This document shows positions 55,037-63,991 of a DNA stretch of 64,000 nt, piece by piece; position 1 is the first letter of the stretch; every line of letters starts with the position of its first letter. Below the pieces are notes generated by a model. The model saw only the letters and a list, made by a program, of their open reading frames with translations, made no database searches and had not been told where the DNA came from. The position numbers were made by a program, and so were the translations under genes. Origin of the DNA: a phage; the NCBI GenBank assembly GCA_020279385.1, contig GCA_020279385.1_4762.1; one strand, 5' to 3'.

Positions 55037-55294
55037 ATGGCACGTCGTAAATTTACAGATAATTGTGAAGCAATTCAGGTATCCCCTTGCGGTTGGGATG
55101 TGATCGCGAACGGTGAAAAGATCGGAGAGATCATCGATCATACTCATTCATCATTAGCCGATTACACCGATGAACTATGGGAGGGTATCAACTTCATGAA
55201 TGACACTAAACGATTCAAGACTATCGACGAAGCTATCTATTTTGTGTATAATCCAACTTTCGGTATGTGGGGAACTAGAAAATGGCACGCGTAA
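55037..55294 (+). CDS. Hypothetical protein (cassette gene 1)
   Basis: 85 aa; SD GGAGGA; downstream of TTGACA-N16-TATAAT promoter. Confidence 0.5.
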   Translation: MARRKFTDNCEAIQVSPCGWDVIANGEKIGEIIDHTHSSLADYTDELWEGINFMNDTKRFKTIDEAIYFVYNPTFGMWGTRKWHA

Positions 55295-55614
55295 ATATTA
55301 AATTGCATTACACAATGAATAAAGCTAAGTTCCCAATGCAAAAGCATTACTATGGTCTACGTGCACAAGATCCTAAACTCTATGGTACTCATTGGTTTTG
55401 TAAACATGATAACCAATGGCACACATACGAAGAAATGCACGAGATGATGAAACAGGGTATTGAATTTAGTTATTCTAATTATGACCATCGTATAACTTGC
55501 ATTCGAAAATTGAAACGATGGATTCGTAAGAATCCGCAATTTAAAAACTTTGTGTTCTTTATGTCTCATGTTTATTTGGGACATAGCGTTACCGTCACAG
55601 CAAAGGTTAAATAA
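55282..55614 (+). CDS. Hypothetical protein (cassette gene 2)
   Basis: 110 aa; overlaps gene 1 stop. Confidence 0.5.
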   Translation: MARVNIKLHYTMNKAKFPMQKHYYGLRAQDPKLYGTHWFCKHDNQWHTYEEMHEMMKQGIEFSYSNYDHRITCIRKLKRWIRKNPQFKNFVFFMSHVYLGHSVTVTAKVK

Positions 55615-56528: not shown

Positions 56529-57383
56529 ATGGCACAAGTTCCAAAGAAAAGAATAGACACAGGTACTGTCGGCAATCCATCGACTGGCGATATCTTATAT
56601 GATGGCGGTAATAAAATTAACGATAACTTTGATTCAATATATGACGCATTTGCTGATCAACGTCTAAAAGAGATTGATCACGGTGCTGGTCGAATGGTTA
56701 TTCATGCAACTGGATACTATCAGAAACACCCACGACAAAGCTATGCAGGATCTGCGGTAGAGATTGGTAGCCTACATGATATTGACACAACTCAAGGCGC
56801 ATTAATAGCAATTCTTCCTAAAGCTAAAGTTGGTGAGGGTGTTGTGTTCATAAATAGTAACGGTAGCTTTTCGGCAACAACACCACTAAACATTAGAACT
56901 CAAGCCGGAGATTCTATTAGCGGGTATTCAGGTGACGCGGTAATAACTCAACCTTTCTCAAAAGTCACCGTCTGGTGTACTGCCGTCGAAGGTAGTAGAG
57001 TTACTTGGCGGCTGGGCATCGAAAGTATGTTTACCGACACAACTACACCACTAGATAGGACCGTTAATGTAACTGGAGTTGCAACCAACGTTGCTATTGC
57101 AGCAAAAACAGAATATGTATCAATTAAACTATTAACAACCGCTAGCAATACGACGGGTTCAAAAATGCGCTCAAGCGAAACTCTATTGATGATTGATGCC
57201 AGAGCCGGAAAAGTTTACGCGACAGAATATGCGGTTTTACAGAAAACAGAAGACGAATTATACACGGTTCGTTATTTCATTGGTTCCGGCGATAAAGTAT
57301 ATGCAGAGTATAAGGCTACTGGCGAAAATATTCGTTTAGCAGTTAAAGCCACAGACACTATTAAAATCGGGGTTGCTACATGA
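56529..57383 (+). CDS. 9: Baseplate long-tail-fibre attachment protein gp9
   Basis: KKRIDTGTVGNPSTGDILYDGGNKIN matches T4 gp9 N-terminus. Confidence 0.9.
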   Translation: MAQVPKKRIDTGTVGNPSTGDILYDGGNKINDNFDSIYDAFADQRLKEIDHGAGRMVIHATGYYQKHPRQSYAGSAVEIGSLHDIDTTQGALIAILPKAKVGEGVVFINSNGSFSATTPLNIRTQAGDSISGYSGDAVITQPFSKVTVWCTAVEGSRVTWRLGIESMFTDTTTPLDRTVNVTGVATNVAIAAKTEYVSIKLLTTASNTTGSKMRSSETLLMIDARAGKVYATEYAVLQKTEDELYTVRYFIGSGDKVYAEYKATGENIRLAVKATDTIKIGVAT

Positions 57384-59182
57384 AACAATTAATTAATATC
57401 GGTAACGTTGTAGATGACGGTACTGGTGATTATCTAAGAAAAGGCGGTCAAAAGATCAACGACAACTTTTCTGAACTTTATACTAAGCTGGGGGACGGCG
57501 ATACCCCCCACGCATCCGGTGCATGGAAAACGCACACAGCACCATTATTAAAGCCTAATTTTGGTGATGCGTGGGCTATCAATACAACAAACAACGCGGT
57601 GTCGGTAGAGCTTCCTAAAGGTGGAGTTGGTGATTATAACAAGACAATTAAACTTCGTGATGTTTGGCGCTCGTGGGCGTCTCATAACGTAACATTGAAG
57701 CCAGCACAAGGTGATACCATTAAGGGATCTCCAATCGACCGTGAGTTGTATAAAGATTTTATGGATGTTGAACTGGTTTATTGTGCGCCTGGACGCTGGG
57801 AATATATCGAAAACAAGCGAGTTGACACGATCACCACGTCTGACCTAAGCACAGTAGCTAAGGAAGTTTATATTGCCACAGAAGGGCAAACAGATTTCCC
57901 TAATGTATTTGGTTCTAACACATATAACACTCGAAATGTTGAAGTATATTATCGAGGAAACCTTTTATATTATGGCAAGTCTTTTAGTAATGACTCTAAC
58001 TACGGTTCAATTGGTGAGGATGGATCACTTGTTGAACTTGATGGCAAAAGCATAAAACTTCGTTTTCCTTGTTCGGCTGGGGATACCGTTCAAATTATTA
58101 CATATATGGACGGAATTGCATCATTCCGATCTAGTTATATCACACACACAATTAGAGTGTATGATACTGGAATGACAGCACTAGAAACTATTCCGGGTGA
58201 AGTGTGGGTAGGTGATTTATCGACGAAAAAAGAATTTACCAATGCTGATTTGGGAGTTAGTAAACGTGATATAATTAACCCAAATTCATTTGAGTTATTA
58301 ATAAATGGTACTCAAATGATTAAAGCTGGTGATGCTGATCTTCCTTCGTTTGTTTGTGAAGGTGCTGACGGAGAAACCGAAGAGAGTTGCGCACTTGCTG
58401 GCGGTCAGTGGGTACAGTCTGGAGAAGATTATTCACTGGTATTTGATGAGAATAGCATTGTAACAGGGATTAAATTAGCTAAAGCGTTGGACAATAGAGA
58501 TACTATAACAATTCGTTGGTTTAATAACGATATCGGAACTCTATTAGAATGGGATGGTGTCGGAGGAATTAAAGAAAAAGCAGACAAGATTTATCTCAAT
58601 AACGAAGACGAAGTTAATTTAACAAAACAAATTGAATATACTGACTTCCAGAATCCTAGCCAGAAAAACACTCGTCCGGCAGAAGAGTATTCAGGTCGAA
58701 TTATGGATATATATGCACTGTTTGATATTTTCCATCCGATCGGCACGATATACGAAAACGCACATAACCCAGCTAACCCAGCGACATATATGGGTATTGG
58801 TATCTGGGTTCGGTATGCGGAAGGAGAATTTCTTGCTGGTTGGTCTTCCGATGCCAGCGACCAGAATTTTGCATTAAACAATAACGATCTTGATATTCAT
58901 GGACAACCTACACACACCGCTGGTGGTACTGGTGGTGAAGTTGCCTATCAAATCAAGAAAGATATGATTCCTGAATTACAATCCAGCGATCGTGTTTTGG
59001 TGAAAGACGATACAGGGTCAATTATCATTGGTGGTTGTCAAGTTGATCCTGATGCGGCAGGTCCAGCGTTTACGAAATATAGAGAGGATATCGTAAAAGT
59101 TAATTCTGGAAATGCTGATCCATCAATGATGGGTATTCTTCCTCCATATCGCACCGTTCATCGCTGGTTAAGGGTAGGTTAA
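57380..59182 (+). CDS. 10: Baseplate wedge protein gp10
   Basis: 600 aa (T4 gp10 is 602 aa), conserved position. Confidence 0.9.
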   Translation: MKQLINIGNVVDDGTGDYLRKGGQKINDNFSELYTKLGDGDTPHASGAWKTHTAPLLKPNFGDAWAINTTNNAVSVELPKGGVGDYNKTIKLRDVWRSWASHNVTLKPAQGDTIKGSPIDRELYKDFMDVELVYCAPGRWEYIENKRVDTITTSDLSTVAKEVYIATEGQTDFPNVFGSNTYNTRNVEVYYRGNLLYYGKSFSNDSNYGSIGEDGSLVELDGKSIKLRFPCSAGDTVQIITYMDGIASFRSSYITHTIRVYDTGMTALETIPGEVWVGDLSTKKEFTNADLGVSKRDIINPNSFELLINGTQMIKAGDADLPSFVCEGADGETEESCALAGGQWVQSGEDYSLVFDENSIVTGIKLAKALDNRDTITIRWFNNDIGTLLEWDGVGGIKEKADKIYLNNEDEVNLTKQIEYTDFQNPSQKNTRPAEEYSGRIMDIYALFDIFHPIGTIYENAHNPANPATYMGIGIWVRYAEGEFLAGWSSDASDQNFALNNNDLDIHGQPTHTAGGTGGEVAYQIKKDMIPELQSSDRVLVKDDTGSIIIGGCQVDPDAAGPAFTKYREDIVKVNSGNADPSMMGILPPYRTVHRWLRVG

Positions 59183-59183
59183 T

Positions 59184-59828
59184 ATGATTTCTAAAACACG
59201 TTCTAAAGCAAGCGTATTTTCTAGCGACGCAGCATTCATTTCATACGATCCGGGGTCGAAAGACCCCATTATTGGTGACATTCGCCCAATTGGTGGATTA
59301 AACGTAGACCAATCTCGCAAAGGTTCTTTTATTAACAACGTACAATCAGCCATTGATGATTTGTATAGCATTTCTATGCTTAATGTCGGTGATGTATTGG
59401 TAACTACAAATTCAACTCCACCGGAAGCGGCGGGACAAATAGAAACTCTTTCTTTCACTGGAACGGTAACAAATAAACACGATCCAGCCGCGACAAAAGT
59501 TGTAATTGAAGTTTTGGGTTATCCATTTGTTGTTAATGTTGGAACATCGAATGTTGCATTATGCGAAATGGTCACAACAAAATTTACTGAATTGAAAGAC
59601 AAAAGTATCTTATTCTCTAGAGTTGAGAGGAAAGGTACTGGCAACGATAAAATAGAGATTCAGTATATTGATTCAAACGCACACGAAGCAACGGTCGTAG
59701 AAAAATATGGTATTAGCGTTCGTGGGGAAATAAATTCCCCTGCTCGTTATGGTTATGGTGCATGGTCCAGATTGGGAACGGAAGAAAAATTTGATTCAAC
59801 ACTATTTTATTTTAAGCGTATTGCGTAA
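59184..59828 (+). CDS. 11: Baseplate wedge / short-fibre attachment protein gp11
   Basis: 214 aa, C-terminus ...FYFKRIA resembles T4 gp11 ...FYHFERTA. Confidence 0.9.
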   Translation: MISKTRSKASVFSSDAAFISYDPGSKDPIIGDIRPIGGLNVDQSRKGSFINNVQSAIDDLYSISMLNVGDVLVTTNSTPPEAAGQIETLSFTGTVTNKHDPAATKVVIEVLGYPFVVNVGTSNVALCEMVTTKFTELKDKSILFSRVERKGTGNDKIEIQYIDSNAHEATVVEKYGISVRGEINSPARYGYGAWSRLGTEEKFDSTLFYFKRIA

Positions 59829-59839
59829 GGTGTAAAATT

Positions 59840-61243
59840 ATGAATAACACTATTAATCACGTAAAAGACGATGCACAGTATGTTAAGTTTGACCCTACCG
59901 GAAATTGGCCTAGCAATATAAAAAACGTACAAGCGGCATTAGCCGCTATTCAGGGATTTGCGATTGCAGGTCTTCCAACTGCAACCGAAGAAACAGCGGG
60001 TATTGCTGAAATTGCTACTCAACAAGAAGTAGATGATGGGTTGGATGGAACTAAAATTGTTACCCCAAAAACATTGGCTGTTAAGCTGTCAAGACCGGAC
60101 GCAACAAAACTTGTCAAAGGGATCACTCGCTATGCTAATAACGATGAAGCTATGGGCGATACTCCAAATATTGCAATTGGTCCTGATACATTAACCCATG
60201 TATTCGAGAACAAGAAAGCAACGGAAACCGTACAGGGTACAATTAAAATCTGTTCTATGGACGCGGCAAAAATCGGTAGCGATGACACTATGGCAGTTAC
60301 GCCTAAAAAGATGCACGCTGCTATTGCTCAGATTGTTCCTGGATTGATTCCAGAGCAAAATACCGCGTCAGAAGCCCGTGAGGGTTTAGTTAGACTGGCA
60401 ACAAGCCAACAAACGCTTGCTGGGACTATCAGAGAAGGATTTGCCGTTAGTCCATATGCGTTTTCCAACGCAAGAGCAAATGAAAATCAGGCGGGTACTG
60501 TTAAAATTGCGTCATCCCAACAAATGATTGACGGAAATGACAACACAGTAGTAGTATCAGCACAAAAATTTGCAAACACTAAAGCAACCACTGGACAATT
60601 CGGTGTTGTTAAGCTAACAGATAATCCCGGTTCCGGTGAAGCAAATGCTGCATTATCTGCAAATGCTCGTGTATTGCCTCTAAGCGGTGGTGTCGTTACT
60701 GGTGATGTTTATCGTCATAATGGAGGTGACGGAAACCAGTTTACCACTAAAAACGAAATGGATGCATGGTGTATGCCAATTGGTGCAATTATTCTAACTG
60801 CATTCAATAGCAATGATCACGGTGCATTTAAAATTTGTAACGGTCAATGGTTGAATAAACACCAATATCCTACGCTATTTGCTCGCATCGGATTTACATA
60901 TGGTGGTGACGGTGGAGATCATTTCGCTGTTCCAGATATGCGCGGTCTTGTTGCTCGTGGGTGCGATTGGGGAAGGGGTTTAGACCCAGGTCGTGGATTT
61001 GGTACATATCAAGACGATACTATGCAACGGATAAATGGTCAATTCCCGGTAGCTAACCGCTATCGTGGATGGGCTAATGGCGCATTTAGTCTCATTGGTG
61101 GTCAGTGGAACACCAACTACAAAAACGGTAAGGGTGATGATTGGGGTGCTATAGTAGACTTTGACAGCGCAAGACAGGTTAGAACGTCTGGCGAAACTCG
61201 CGTTAAAAGCCTTGCATTAAACTACGTTATAAGGGTACAATAA
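59840..61243 (+). CDS. 12: Short tail fibre gp12
   Basis: YVKFDPTGNWP..; repeated TxxKITRYANNDEA-type blocks; C-terminal GQWLNKHQYPTLFARIGFTYGG..PDMRGLVARG as T4 gp12. Confidence 0.9.
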   Translation: MNNTINHVKDDAQYVKFDPTGNWPSNIKNVQAALAAIQGFAIAGLPTATEETAGIAEIATQQEVDDGLDGTKIVTPKTLAVKLSRPDATKLVKGITRYANNDEAMGDTPNIAIGPDTLTHVFENKKATETVQGTIKICSMDAAKIGSDDTMAVTPKKMHAAIAQIVPGLIPEQNTASEAREGLVRLATSQQTLAGTIREGFAVSPYAFSNARANENQAGTVKIASSQQMIDGNDNTVVVSAQKFANTKATTGQFGVVKLTDNPGSGEANAALSANARVLPLSGGVVTGDVYRHNGGDGNQFTTKNEMDAWCMPIGAIILTAFNSNDHGAFKICNGQWLNKHQYPTLFARIGFTYGGDGGDHFAVPDMRGLVARGCDWGRGLDPGRGFGTYQDDTMQRINGQFPVANRYRGWANGAFSLIGGQWNTNYKNGKGDDWGAIVDFDSARQVRTSGETRVKSLALNYVIRVQ

Positions 61244-63012
61244 TGATCGAACAATTAAACATTCGAAAGATCCCTAACGTCGATGGTGTCCCTGGAGAGG
61301 GACAACATTCTATTAGCTGGATTAAAAATGGTGAATGTCTAAGCGCAGCAACCACAGAAACAGGACACGAGGGGACGCTTAATCGCGCCCCTTATGCGAT
61401 TCAAGAAAATATTGTTCGTCTGGATGAAAATTCTAAGACAACGGTAACAAAAGTTAACGAAGTTGTTACAGCAGTTAATGATATTAAAACTACTTTAGGC
61501 GCGGTTGCTGATGGTAGTATTATTGATATTGTCAATCAAACTATTGCAAAGGTTGAGTCTGTAGAAGAAAATTTAGGAGAAACTTCAAGGACATTACAAA
61601 CCACAGTAGATGAACTGGCGGAGACAGGAAAGAAAATTGGTGTTCGTCCGGCAGCAGATCCGAGTACACGAACAATATATGATGATATTTCTTTCATCAA
61701 ACAAGAATTGGGTGCTTTCCCTAACTTCACTATCAACGGTTCTCCAGATCCGGGTAGTTCAGGTTCCGGTATCAAATATCGAGTTATCCAGAATACGGAA
61801 GCATTAAACAACCACGGTCAGCGAATCCGCCAACTAGAAAACGACTGGCAAGATTCTGACGTTGGAGAGCTAACAAAACAAGTTAACAAAATGCGAAGCG
61901 AGCTAGGCGATACATCACTAGCAACACAGGACAATGTTTATCTTCGTCTTCGCACAAATACTCGCAATATCGCTAGTATATCAAACGAAGTTCAGGAAGT
62001 AAAGAAAGCGATTCTATTTGAATCAATTCCTGATATCGGGACTAAAGTAACTAAGCTACAATCTGATTATACACAGCTTAATGATGAAGTCAACGGCGTT
62101 GACGCTGGTATCCGTCCTCGTTTAACTCTTCTGGAAAATACGATTGGCAGTCCTCAAGCCGCTGGAAGTATTGATTATAGATTGACTAATCAAGAACGGG
62201 AATTTGTAGATCTTAAATCTATTGTCGGTGTTAGTGGTGCTGATGGCCTACGTGGTGAGGTTGCACGAATCTCTAACACAGTTGGTACTGATAGTGAGCG
62301 TCATACTATCGCAGGTCGTCTAAAAATTGTAGAAAATACACAGGGACGACTAGAAGCTAGCGTACAGGATATCGAGCAAATGATCGGCGATCGAGATTCC
62401 GGTCTAACCGCCGGGGTTATTAAGCTGTCAAGCGACATGTACGGCAATCCAGAAGGAAGCACGCAGCTTGAACAAGATGGGATCGTGAAAACTGTTAAGG
62501 AATTGAGCACATCAAATGCAAGCAAGGTAACAGACGTTCCTGATGATGGTTTCCATTATCTACGTAAGCACGGGGAATGGGTTCAGGTCGCATGGGCGGC
62601 TGGTGCATTTAAAAACACCGCTCAGATTGATATTACTCTCGACGGACAAGATCAATACAAAGGAATCCCGCTAAACGATATGACCGAAGAAGTTCCTGCG
62701 CGTGGAATGGTTAAGAGCGAATCTCTTGTTACGGTTAACGACAAAGGCTTATTCCGTTGTGATTTCCGTTGTTCTGTAAATGCGGTACATAACGCTACTT
62801 TCGTAGTCGGTATTGCTAAAAATGGTCTGATTGTACATGAGGTACGAAATGGTCATTATGGACCTGATGATTTAATTAGCTATTCTACCAGTGCTTTCCT
62901 AAATATTGAAAAGGGCGACCGGATCGATATTCGCATTAAGGGCGTATCCGAAGAAGCATTAGCGCAACAGCTACAAATTAAAGAGTTCCTCTTTGGAATT
63001 TCTCCGGTATAA
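61243..63012 (+). CDS. wac: Fibritin (whisker) Wac with extra C-terminal domain
   Basis: N-terminus VDGVPGEGQHSISWIKNGE as T4 Wac; coiled-coil body; foldon-like GFHYLRKHGEWV followed by about 125 extra residues. Confidence 0.9.
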   Translation: MIEQLNIRKIPNVDGVPGEGQHSISWIKNGECLSAATTETGHEGTLNRAPYAIQENIVRLDENSKTTVTKVNEVVTAVNDIKTTLGAVADGSIIDIVNQTIAKVESVEENLGETSRTLQTTVDELAETGKKIGVRPAADPSTRTIYDDISFIKQELGAFPNFTINGSPDPGSSGSGIKYRVIQNTEALNNHGQRIRQLENDWQDSDVGELTKQVNKMRSELGDTSLATQDNVYLRLRTNTRNIASISNEVQEVKKAILFESIPDIGTKVTKLQSDYTQLNDEVNGVDAGIRPRLTLLENTIGSPQAAGSIDYRLTNQEREFVDLKSIVGVSGADGLRGEVARISNTVGTDSERHTIAGRLKIVENTQGRLEASVQDIEQMIGDRDSGLTAGVIKLSSDMYGNPEGSTQLEQDGIVKTVKELSTSNASKVTDVPDDGFHYLRKHGEWVQVAWAAGAFKNTAQIDITLDGQDQYKGIPLNDMTEEVPARGMVKSESLVTVNDKGLFRCDFRCSVNAVHNATFVVGIAKNGLIVHEVRNGHYGPDDLISYSTSAFLNIEKGDRIDIRIKGVSEEALAQQLQIKEFLFGISPV

Positions 63013-63017
63013 GAAAT

Positions 63018-63042
63018 TAAAGGGGCGTTAAGCCCCTTTTCC
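63018..63042 (+). terminator. Intrinsic terminator after wac
   Basis: AGGGGC-GTTA-AGCCCCT hairpin plus TTTT. Confidence 0.6.
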
Positions 63043-63058
63043 GTTTATAGGTGATATT

Positions 63059-63991
63059 ATGTCAGGATATGTAACCAATAACCCAAGAGAATTAAAAGAC
63101 GCTATTCTGCGTCGTTTAGGCGCACCAGTAATTAACGTAGAAGTCACAGAAGACCAGATTTACGATTGTATTCAGAGAGCACTAGAACTCTATGGGGAAT
63201 ATCATTTCGATGGTGTGAATAAAGGATATAAAGTATTTCGTGTTAGTGCAGAGCAAGCTCAACACGGGGTATTTGATTTAAGCGATTCTGGTGTATTCGC
63301 AGTAACTAAAATAATTCGAACAAACGTAGGTAGCGCGGCTACGATGGATGGTACTGCCGTTTATCCGTGGTTTACTGACTTTCTGTTGGGTTTAGCGGGT
63401 GTAAATGGCGGTTTAGGATCTGGCTGTAGTAAATTTTATGGTCCAAATGCGATGGGCGGTGATCTGGGATATTTCGAACAGCTTATGAGCTATCGCGCAA
63501 CTATGCAAAACATGCTTAATCCGCTGCCAGATTATTGGTATAATAGCGCAAACGGACAACTTAAGATCACTGGTAATTTTCGAGAAGGTGATCTCATTGT
63601 TGTTGAATTATATGTTAAAAGCTATGTAGACGTTCCTGATATGATCGGCGCGGTTGCTGGTTATGCTCATGCGGGAGGATGTTCTACCGCTGGCGGGATT
63701 AGCGCCGTTTATGATAATCCAACTGCTGGTTTAAGCGGGATTGTTGCTGGCATGGGACCGATCAGTGAGAACAAGCAGGGCGCATATAATAACCGTTGGG
63801 TTAAAGACATGGCAACCGCTTTCACTAAGGAGGTGTGGGGGTCCATCATGGCTAAACATCAAGGTCTGCAATTACCCGGCGGTGTCACTGTTGATGGTAT
63901 CCGAATCATTGAAGAAGCACGCGCCGACATTGAGAAATTGCGACAAGAACTAGAATTATTAGATCCTCCGTTCGGCATCCTCATGATTTGA
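63059..63991 (+). CDS. 13: Neck protein gp13
   Basis: [52 protein letters not shown] nearly identical to T4 gp13. Confidence 0.95.

Follow-up and report, generated by a model that had tools for sequence, protein, structure and literature searches.

In T4-like phages, whiskers control the timing of tail-fibre deployment, and the foldon of their constituent protein, fibritin, is a widely used trimerisation tag. The stretch of phage DNA analysed here (64,000 nucleotides, referred to as the window) encodes a fibritin that continues well beyond a foldon-like segment, and this locus raises the question of what such a whisker carries at its free end and what purpose the addition serves. The first-pass annotation of the window proposed an extra receptor-binding or environment-sensing module, a role that is not established. 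The extended protein is an RB49-type fibritin, a kind that had already been described and that was not recognised as such in the first pass.

Layout of the wac locus and its product

The window is 99% identical in nucleotide sequence to phage JSE and belongs to a Krischvirus, an RB49/JSE-like coliphage. Its wac gene (fibritin, neck whisker protein; 61243..63012, plus strand) is one uninterrupted ORF of 589 aa plus a stop codon and shares 99% nucleotide identity with the gene annotated as wac in Escherichia phage JSE. The ORF is not a chance one: the whole gene is matched at 76-99% nucleotide identity by every one of the 58 Krischvirus records in the phage collection, and the six wac genes compared in full have 589 codons each. 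Along its full length, the product matches PHROG 1056 'fibritin neck whisker' (E 3.4e-180), and T4 fibritin (PDB 2bsg) aligns with it in one collinear alignment, residues 7-430 of Wac corresponding to residues 6-435 of T4 (E 4.8e-52). The T4 fibritin chains in the PDB have 486-487 aa, and the initial comparison of 589 aa here with 487 aa in T4 was correct.

As for T4-type fibritin, the gene is flanked by gene 12 (short tail fibre) and gene 13 (neck), and distant homologs have the same placement; in the window, the neighbours are a gp12-like short-tail-fibre gene with a Pfam Collar domain upstream (59840..61243) and a gp13-like neck gene downstream (63059..63991). Between wac and gene 13 lies a GC-rich, terminator-like hairpin (63019..63039, given without strand), 7 nt past the wac stop codon, with a perfect 8-bp stem, AAAGGGGC-GTTAA-GCCCCTTT. 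In a consensus scan it was assigned to the minus strand. Its stem is palindromic, and TCCGTTT follows the plus-strand copy; by its sequence, the element looks like a terminator or an RNA-stabilising hairpin.

Four segments can be distinguished in Wac. The first is the N-terminal collar or neck-attachment domain (aa 1-50; 61243..61392, plus strand), which aligns with the T4 fibritin fragments 1ox3 and 2ibl (aa 7-84 of Wac, E about 1e-14) and corresponds to the conserved N-terminal domain of about 50 aa by which T4-type fibritin attaches to the neck; 78% of its positions are invariant across 6 Krischviruses, and it is 54% identical to that of a distant fibritin, P0004. A long segmented shaft follows (aa 51-425; 61393..62517, plus strand), collinear with T4 fibritin 6-435 in a single alignment and, given this homology, probably a coiled coil.

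The third segment is a foldon-like beta-hairpin (aa 426-450, core DVPDDGFHYLRKHGEWVQVA; 62518..62592, plus strand), identified by Pfam, phmmer and a structure model. The Pfam Fibritin_C match spans Wac aa 368-450 and extends to position 91 of the 93 in the profile (E 1.5e-24), and phmmer aligns aa 425-449 (NASKVTDVPDDGFHYLRKHGEWVQV) with the T4 foldon (fibritin 456-480). The core of the hairpin, P-D-G-Y-R-K-G-E-W-V, is preserved, and the motif is modelled as a hairpin with strands at 437-442 and 445-451 (pLDDT about 58). Within Krischvirus, 80% of its positions are invariant and its dN/dS is 0.01-0.09. In P0004, P0022 and phage 92A1 the motif has degenerated, P0022 being without the Trp and P0004 without the turn Gly, and the tail is kept in all three. 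The foldon forms the extreme C-terminus of T4-type fibritin; in Wac, in contrast, the hairpin stops at aa 450 and 139 residues lie beyond it. Thus, the foldon hairpin is kept upstream of the tail, and the C-terminal knob was added after the hairpin and did not replace it.

The fourth segment (aa 451-589; 62593..63009, plus strand) is the 'RB49-type' C-terminal module, for which we predict a C1q/TNF-like (BclA_C-like) jelly roll. A foldon-like segment followed by an extra globular domain is what the first-pass annotation had described, and the two peptides it quoted are present in Wac (GFHYLRKHGEWV, aa 436-447, and CDFRCSVNAVHNATFVVGIAKNG, aa 506-528). Its boundaries need revision: the extension is real, but the start given, 62640, falls on the last base of codon 466 and so misses the first 15 or so codons of the domain, and the length is about 139 residues (aa 451-589) in place of about 125.

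Predicted fold of the C-terminal domain

A first AlphaFold2 model of the tail, built from 3 near-identical sequences, was too weak (pLDDT 55). With RB49-type and P0004 tails added to give a 5-sequence alignment, the model was all-beta with a mean pLDDT of 71; the core (aa 501-580) reached 77-90, and the N-terminal third of the domain (aa 451-500) was poor, mostly 43-69. The fold described below is that of this monomer model from a shallow alignment. It has the compact antiparallel beta-jelly-roll of about 130-140 aa that is typical of C1q/TNF domains, and its best structural matches (match value last in brackets) were the tail fibre of cyanophage A4 (9k09, 11.4), the C1q domain of Caprin-2 (4oul, 11.1), the short-tail-fibre CBD of cyanophage A-1(L) (8ke9, 10.9), F-BclA (9h38, 10.6), ectodysplasin (1rj7, 10.6), BclA (3twi and 1wck, 10.5) and cerebellin (5h48, 10.5). 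TWEAK, C1q chains, APRIL, BAFF, TRAIL, CD40L and others came next, so that the C1q/TNF superfamily accounts for nearly all of the top 50. Further matches were the receptor-binding protein (RBP) of lactococcal phage 1358, the receptor-binding domain of TM4 gp23 and a TNF-like lectin of Photorhabdus. An independent, weaker model of the tail matched the same families, and the viral structure library BFVD returned many phage proteins labelled 'C1q domain containing', collagen-like or tail fibre.

Sequence comparison points in the same direction at lower strength. The tail in the window scores 16.3 bits against Pfam BclA_C (cut-off 38); 7 of 10 non-redundant family tails match BclA_C below the cut-off (best E 2.7e-7), 4 of the 10 match C1q (best E 0.0018), and the homolog P0021 has a precomputed BclA_C match. 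No match reaches the Pfam gathering score of BclA_C (PF18573) or C1q (PF00386), and the tail profiles A5 and A7 gave no meaningful match to the PDB by sequence. These sub-threshold matches are suggestive of remote homology, which the tail probably shares with BclA_C, the closest family by sequence. We therefore describe aa 451-589 as having a predicted C1q/TNF-like fold and not as a certified member of either family. Separately, the closest Wac homologs, P0007-P0010, carry a precomputed match to Pfam PF28231.1, which is absent from the Pfam scan of the Wac in the window.

The tail had first been characterised as Cys-containing, which does not hold as a structural feature. Across the family, C alternates with V or I at position 506 and with T, V or A at position 510; the two cysteines of the window are four residues apart in the same predicted beta-strand, and a conserved disulfide was accordingly rejected. 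Constraint is found elsewhere, in a HNAT loop (516-519), KNG (526-528), NGHYG-DE (536-543), LNI--GD (553-559) and a terminal ISPV strand, and the variable part of the tail comprises residues 460-500.

Distribution, constraint and exchange of the tail

Few sequences resemble the tail. A tblastn search with the tail of 50,697 phage records gave matches only in the 58 Krischvirus records, and an exhaustive HMMER scan of 1.84 billion representatives found only the RB49-type cluster, the distant fibritin P0004, whose tail is 30% identical, and one repeat protein. The latter (P0005, 696 aa) matched in six weak stretches and was treated as spurious. A later large search recovered Wac homologs down to 30% identity, and from 95% to 30% identity (P0003-P0022 and the locus L011 25860..27635) the architecture and the length, 587-591 aa, were held; this constant length suggests a ruler-like constraint on whisker length. 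In uncultured T4-like phages, RB49-type wac always lies in the order gp10-gp11-gp12-wac-gp13-gp14. Outside the genus, the same layout occurs in a cultured phage, Serratia phage 92A1, whose Wac has 591 aa, 31% identity and the foldon-like sequence NPDDQFYYVRQGDRWVQI. Phage Skers was considered as a natural Krischvirus without wac and was rejected, since it is also without gp13 matches and its record of 154.8 kb is probably incomplete.

Within the genus, the tail is always 139 aa long and at least 74% identical in amino acid sequence, with neither hypervariable loops nor module swaps. Between RB49 and the window, dN/dS of Wac is 0.18 in the tail, 0.08 in the shaft and 0.04 in the N-terminus, and over pairs of Krischviruses it is 0.15-0.39 in the tail and 0.08-0.13 in the shaft; by these ratios, the tail is under purifying selection that is somewhat relaxed. 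It is also the part that diverges fastest at long range, identity to P0004 being 29.5% in the tail, 42% in the shaft and 54% in the N-terminus.

Recombination has occurred inside the tail. In the ECD7 group, wac (L002 in phage ECD7) is a clean recombinant that switches at about aa 480-500: the shaft shares 99.5% identity with that of RB49 (dS 0.02), and aa 501-589 share 97.8% identity with the window (dS 0.03).

On a larger scale, the window and RB49 share 95-100% nucleotide identity over gp53 to gp8 and in gp13. Between these parts lies a diverged island (56640..63012; gp9-gp10-gp11-gp12-wac) with only 62-87% nucleotide identity, and its right edge is the wac stop codon, identity changing from 84% to 99% between about 62960 and 63030. 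The gp13 protein is 100% identical to that of RB49, and Wac is 78% identical with synonymous sites saturated. This sharp contrast indicates that the genes for the peripheral baseplate, the short fibre and the whisker behave together as a single exchanged cassette. A smaller segment, 55142..55441, with small ORFs between gp8 and an ORF143-like gene, has 76% nucleotide identity to RB49 within a stretch of 93-100%. In the uncultured phage that encodes P0004, the short tail fibre (L006 2396..3724) aligns with gp12 of the window over the first ~310 residues only, at 39% identity; its C-terminal receptor-binding part, which here carries the Collar domain, differs, indicating that this lineage exchanged the tip of gp12 and kept a homologous Wac tail.

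Candidate roles of the knob and comparison with known fibritins

Morphological and genetic evidence has the C-terminal part of fibritin touching the long tail fibre just below the knee, and the C-termini of Wac and gp36 are reported to covary, with RB49-like phages noted in this context in PMC9569957; the foldon alone suffices for folding only in the fibritins of T4 and JS98, that of RB49 needing its expanded C-terminal domain (PMC3797505). We lean slightly towards a model whereby the knob is both a trimerisation and folding cap and a distal docking surface for the long tail fibre. Fibritin being a parallel trimer (PMC3797505), each of the six whiskers would carry at its free end one knob of roughly 45 kDa made of three copies of aa 451-589, a packing that we infer from the known architecture; domains of the C1q/TNF superfamily form tight trimers with both termini at the base next to the stalk. 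The knob would then serve as the C-terminal nucleus, trimerising and registering the three chains, and the shaft would zip from the C-terminus, in parallel with the heads of collagen VIII/X, C1q and BclA and with the T4 foldon itself. C1q-type heads nucleate the trimeric collagen-like stalks of collagens and BclA. A folding cap fits the published folding data on RB49 fibritin, and it fits the decay of the foldon in distant members in which the tail persists. In the virion, the same knob would be where the whisker docks at its distal end, most probably onto the enlarged knee of the long tail fibre (gp35 and/or gp36, the latter 496 aa long in RB49), and docking would assist fibre attachment and hold the fibres retracted.

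The evidence on the fibre partner is mixed. In RB49, gene 36 (L007 30157..31647) encodes a gp36 that resembles T4 gp36 over aa 57-154 only, the remaining roughly 340 aa being without a Pfam family. Gene 35 (L007 28814..29953) encodes a gp35 with a weak Pfam ILEI match and no match to the PDB by sequence; an ILEI/PANDER-like domain has recently been reported in the T4 kneecap, gp35 (bioRxiv 10.64898/2026.03.06.709160). Serratia phage 92A1 combines its RB49-type Wac with a full-length RB49-type gp36 (33% identity), a co-occurrence that common descent can explain. At the level of alleles, no covariation of tail and gp36 was found: the ECD7 group and JK32 have gp36 proteins 99.6-99.8% identical to that of RB49 (99.8% in ECD7) together with tails that are only 80-82% identical. 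Such uncoupled alleles would mean either that there is no allele-specific coupling or that the interface is conserved. In T4, cryo-EM places the contact between whisker and fibre not at the tip but at the coiled-coil segment alpha11 (361-386), which lies in a CBM-like groove of gp35 (bioRxiv 10.64898/2026.03.06.709160). Special conservation of the equivalent segment of Wac (aa 356-381) was considered and rejected, this segment ranking 190 of 350 shaft windows in Krischvirus and 102 of 350 against P0004.

A narrower explanation, which we regard as unlikely, would make the knob a cap for folding and trimerisation and nothing else, replacing a weakened foldon and binding nothing in the mature virion. 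The folding requirement of RB49 fibritin, the decay of the foldon in distant lineages, the nucleation of stalks by C1q-type heads and the uncoupling of tail allele from gp36 all agree with it. However, T4 manages with a foldon of 27 residues, and 139 constrained residues with the HNAT and NGHYG-DE loops suggest an extra surface function; moreover, the strong conservation of the foldon hairpin within Krischvirus argues that it has not simply been superseded.

It also seems improbable that the knob is an auxiliary adhesin or lectin for a host-surface glycan (LPS, O-antigen or capsule) or a ligand from the environment, in which case the whiskers would serve as accessory fibres for receptor binding or sensing; the more specific idea, a lectin-like head of the C1q/TNF type with a glycan of the host or the environment as its ligand, we consider quite doubtful. 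The C1q/TNF jelly roll is used by the host-binding tips of other phage fibres, and the host-binding fibres among the best structural matches, which lend the idea some support, share a layout of attachment domain, three-helix stem and C-terminal knob. A stem-CBD construct of A-1(L) binds host cells, but the CBD alone did not, and ligand specificity is not transferable by fold similarity at 11-18% identity. The matches with the 1358 RBP, TM4 gp23 and the Photorhabdus lectin also speak for binding. The rapid long-range divergence of the tail, with dN/dS 2-3 times that of the shaft, would suit an adhesin, yet the 58 Krischviruses infect varied E. coli and Shigella hosts with tails that are at least 74% identical, free of hypervariable loops and below a dN/dS of 0.4, which sets them apart from typical adhesins such as gp37/gp38. 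Likewise, wac shares the diverged gp9-gp12-wac island with the short tail fibre gene, but this linkage could be hitch-hiking. We know of no fibritin for which an adhesin or sensor function has been demonstrated. The literature assigns the expanded C-terminus a part in folding and trimerisation together with a proposed long-tail-fibre contact (PMC3797505), and a study of O-antigen recognition in RB49-like phages names Wac only as the holder of the long tail fibres, not as a receptor-binding protein (PMC9569957). Were the knob to bind glycans, the six whiskers would be accessory adhesins or sensors feeding into long-tail-fibre release.

Finally, we dismiss as highly improbable that the extension is a longer coiled coil or a disordered tail ending in the true foldon, or else an artefact of annotation or gene fusion. 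Nothing was found in favour of this reading: the foldon motif ends at aa 450, the tail is predicted to be all-beta with a confident core, the ORF is uninterrupted and matched over the whole gene in all 58 Krischvirus records, the six genes compared in full have 589 codons each, and divergent metagenomic and Serratia-phage homologs have the same layout, so that neither the longer coiled coil nor the C-terminal foldon that the first-pass annotation had named as grounds for withdrawal was found.

A trimeric C1q/TNF-like head on a retained foldon would provide a structural rationale for the failure of RB49 fibritin to fold with the foldon alone, and it suggests a possible alternative trimerisation domain. 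In addition, aa 451-589, with its conserved HNAT and NGHYG loops, offers a defined module to mutate for the question of contact between the whisker and the gp36/gp35 knee. The general picture is unchanged, as C1q-like knobs are common on phage fibres and RB49-type fibritin was already catalogued.

RB49 represents one of eight C-terminal types of fibritin, and in distant fibritins alien sequences replace the C-terminal domain (Letarov and Krisch, PMC3797505); a 2022 paper also describes the C-terminal moiety of Wac in RB49-like phages as unrelated to that of T4 (PMC9569957). In the published RB49-type fibritin (RB49, Phi1, JSE), a conserved N-terminus and a coiled-coil shaft are followed by a larger, alien C-terminal module that folding requires, and the Wac described here is the same protein: it has 589 aa in RB49 and in the window, genes 12 and 13 flank it, and the two sequences are 78% identical overall and 76% identical in the tail over all 139 aa, so that the C-terminal modules are homologous. 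Whereas the module was published as an unrelated sequence that replaces the foldon, with no fold given, here the foldon hairpin is retained and a C1q/TNF fold is assigned by prediction. Letarov et al. 2005 (J Bacteriol 187:1055) reportedly described an RB49-type fibritin with an alien C-terminal module, and the foldon remnant may already have been noted there; a literature search whose reach did not extend to that paper found no assignment of the C1q/TNF fold to the RB49-type tail. The extended Wac is thus already known, and the increments made here are the fold assignment, the retained foldon and the wider distribution of the architecture.

Compared with T4 fibritin (PDB 1aa0, 1avy and 2bsg), the N-terminal domain and the shaft are homologous (E 5e-52), and the foldon hairpin core P-x-D-G-x-x-Y-x-R-K-x-G-E-W-V is conserved at 10 of 21 positions. 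T4 fibritin ends 7 residues past the hairpin, its last residues being LLSTFL in the wild-type protein, whereas Wac, in which QVAWAA aligns with those last residues, runs on into the 139-aa domain. The C-terminal domain of BclA and the gC1q heads (PF18573 and PF00386; 1wck, 3twi, 4oul and 5h48) resemble the tail in predicted fold at 12-18% sequence identity, below the Pfam gathering scores, and they sit on a collagen triple helix, in contrast to the coiled-coil stalk of Wac. The CBDs of cyanophage A4 gp24 (9k09) and A-1(L) gp33 (8ke9), at 11% identity, belong to host-contacting fibres of the tail or baseplate, whereas Wac forms a whisker of the neck.
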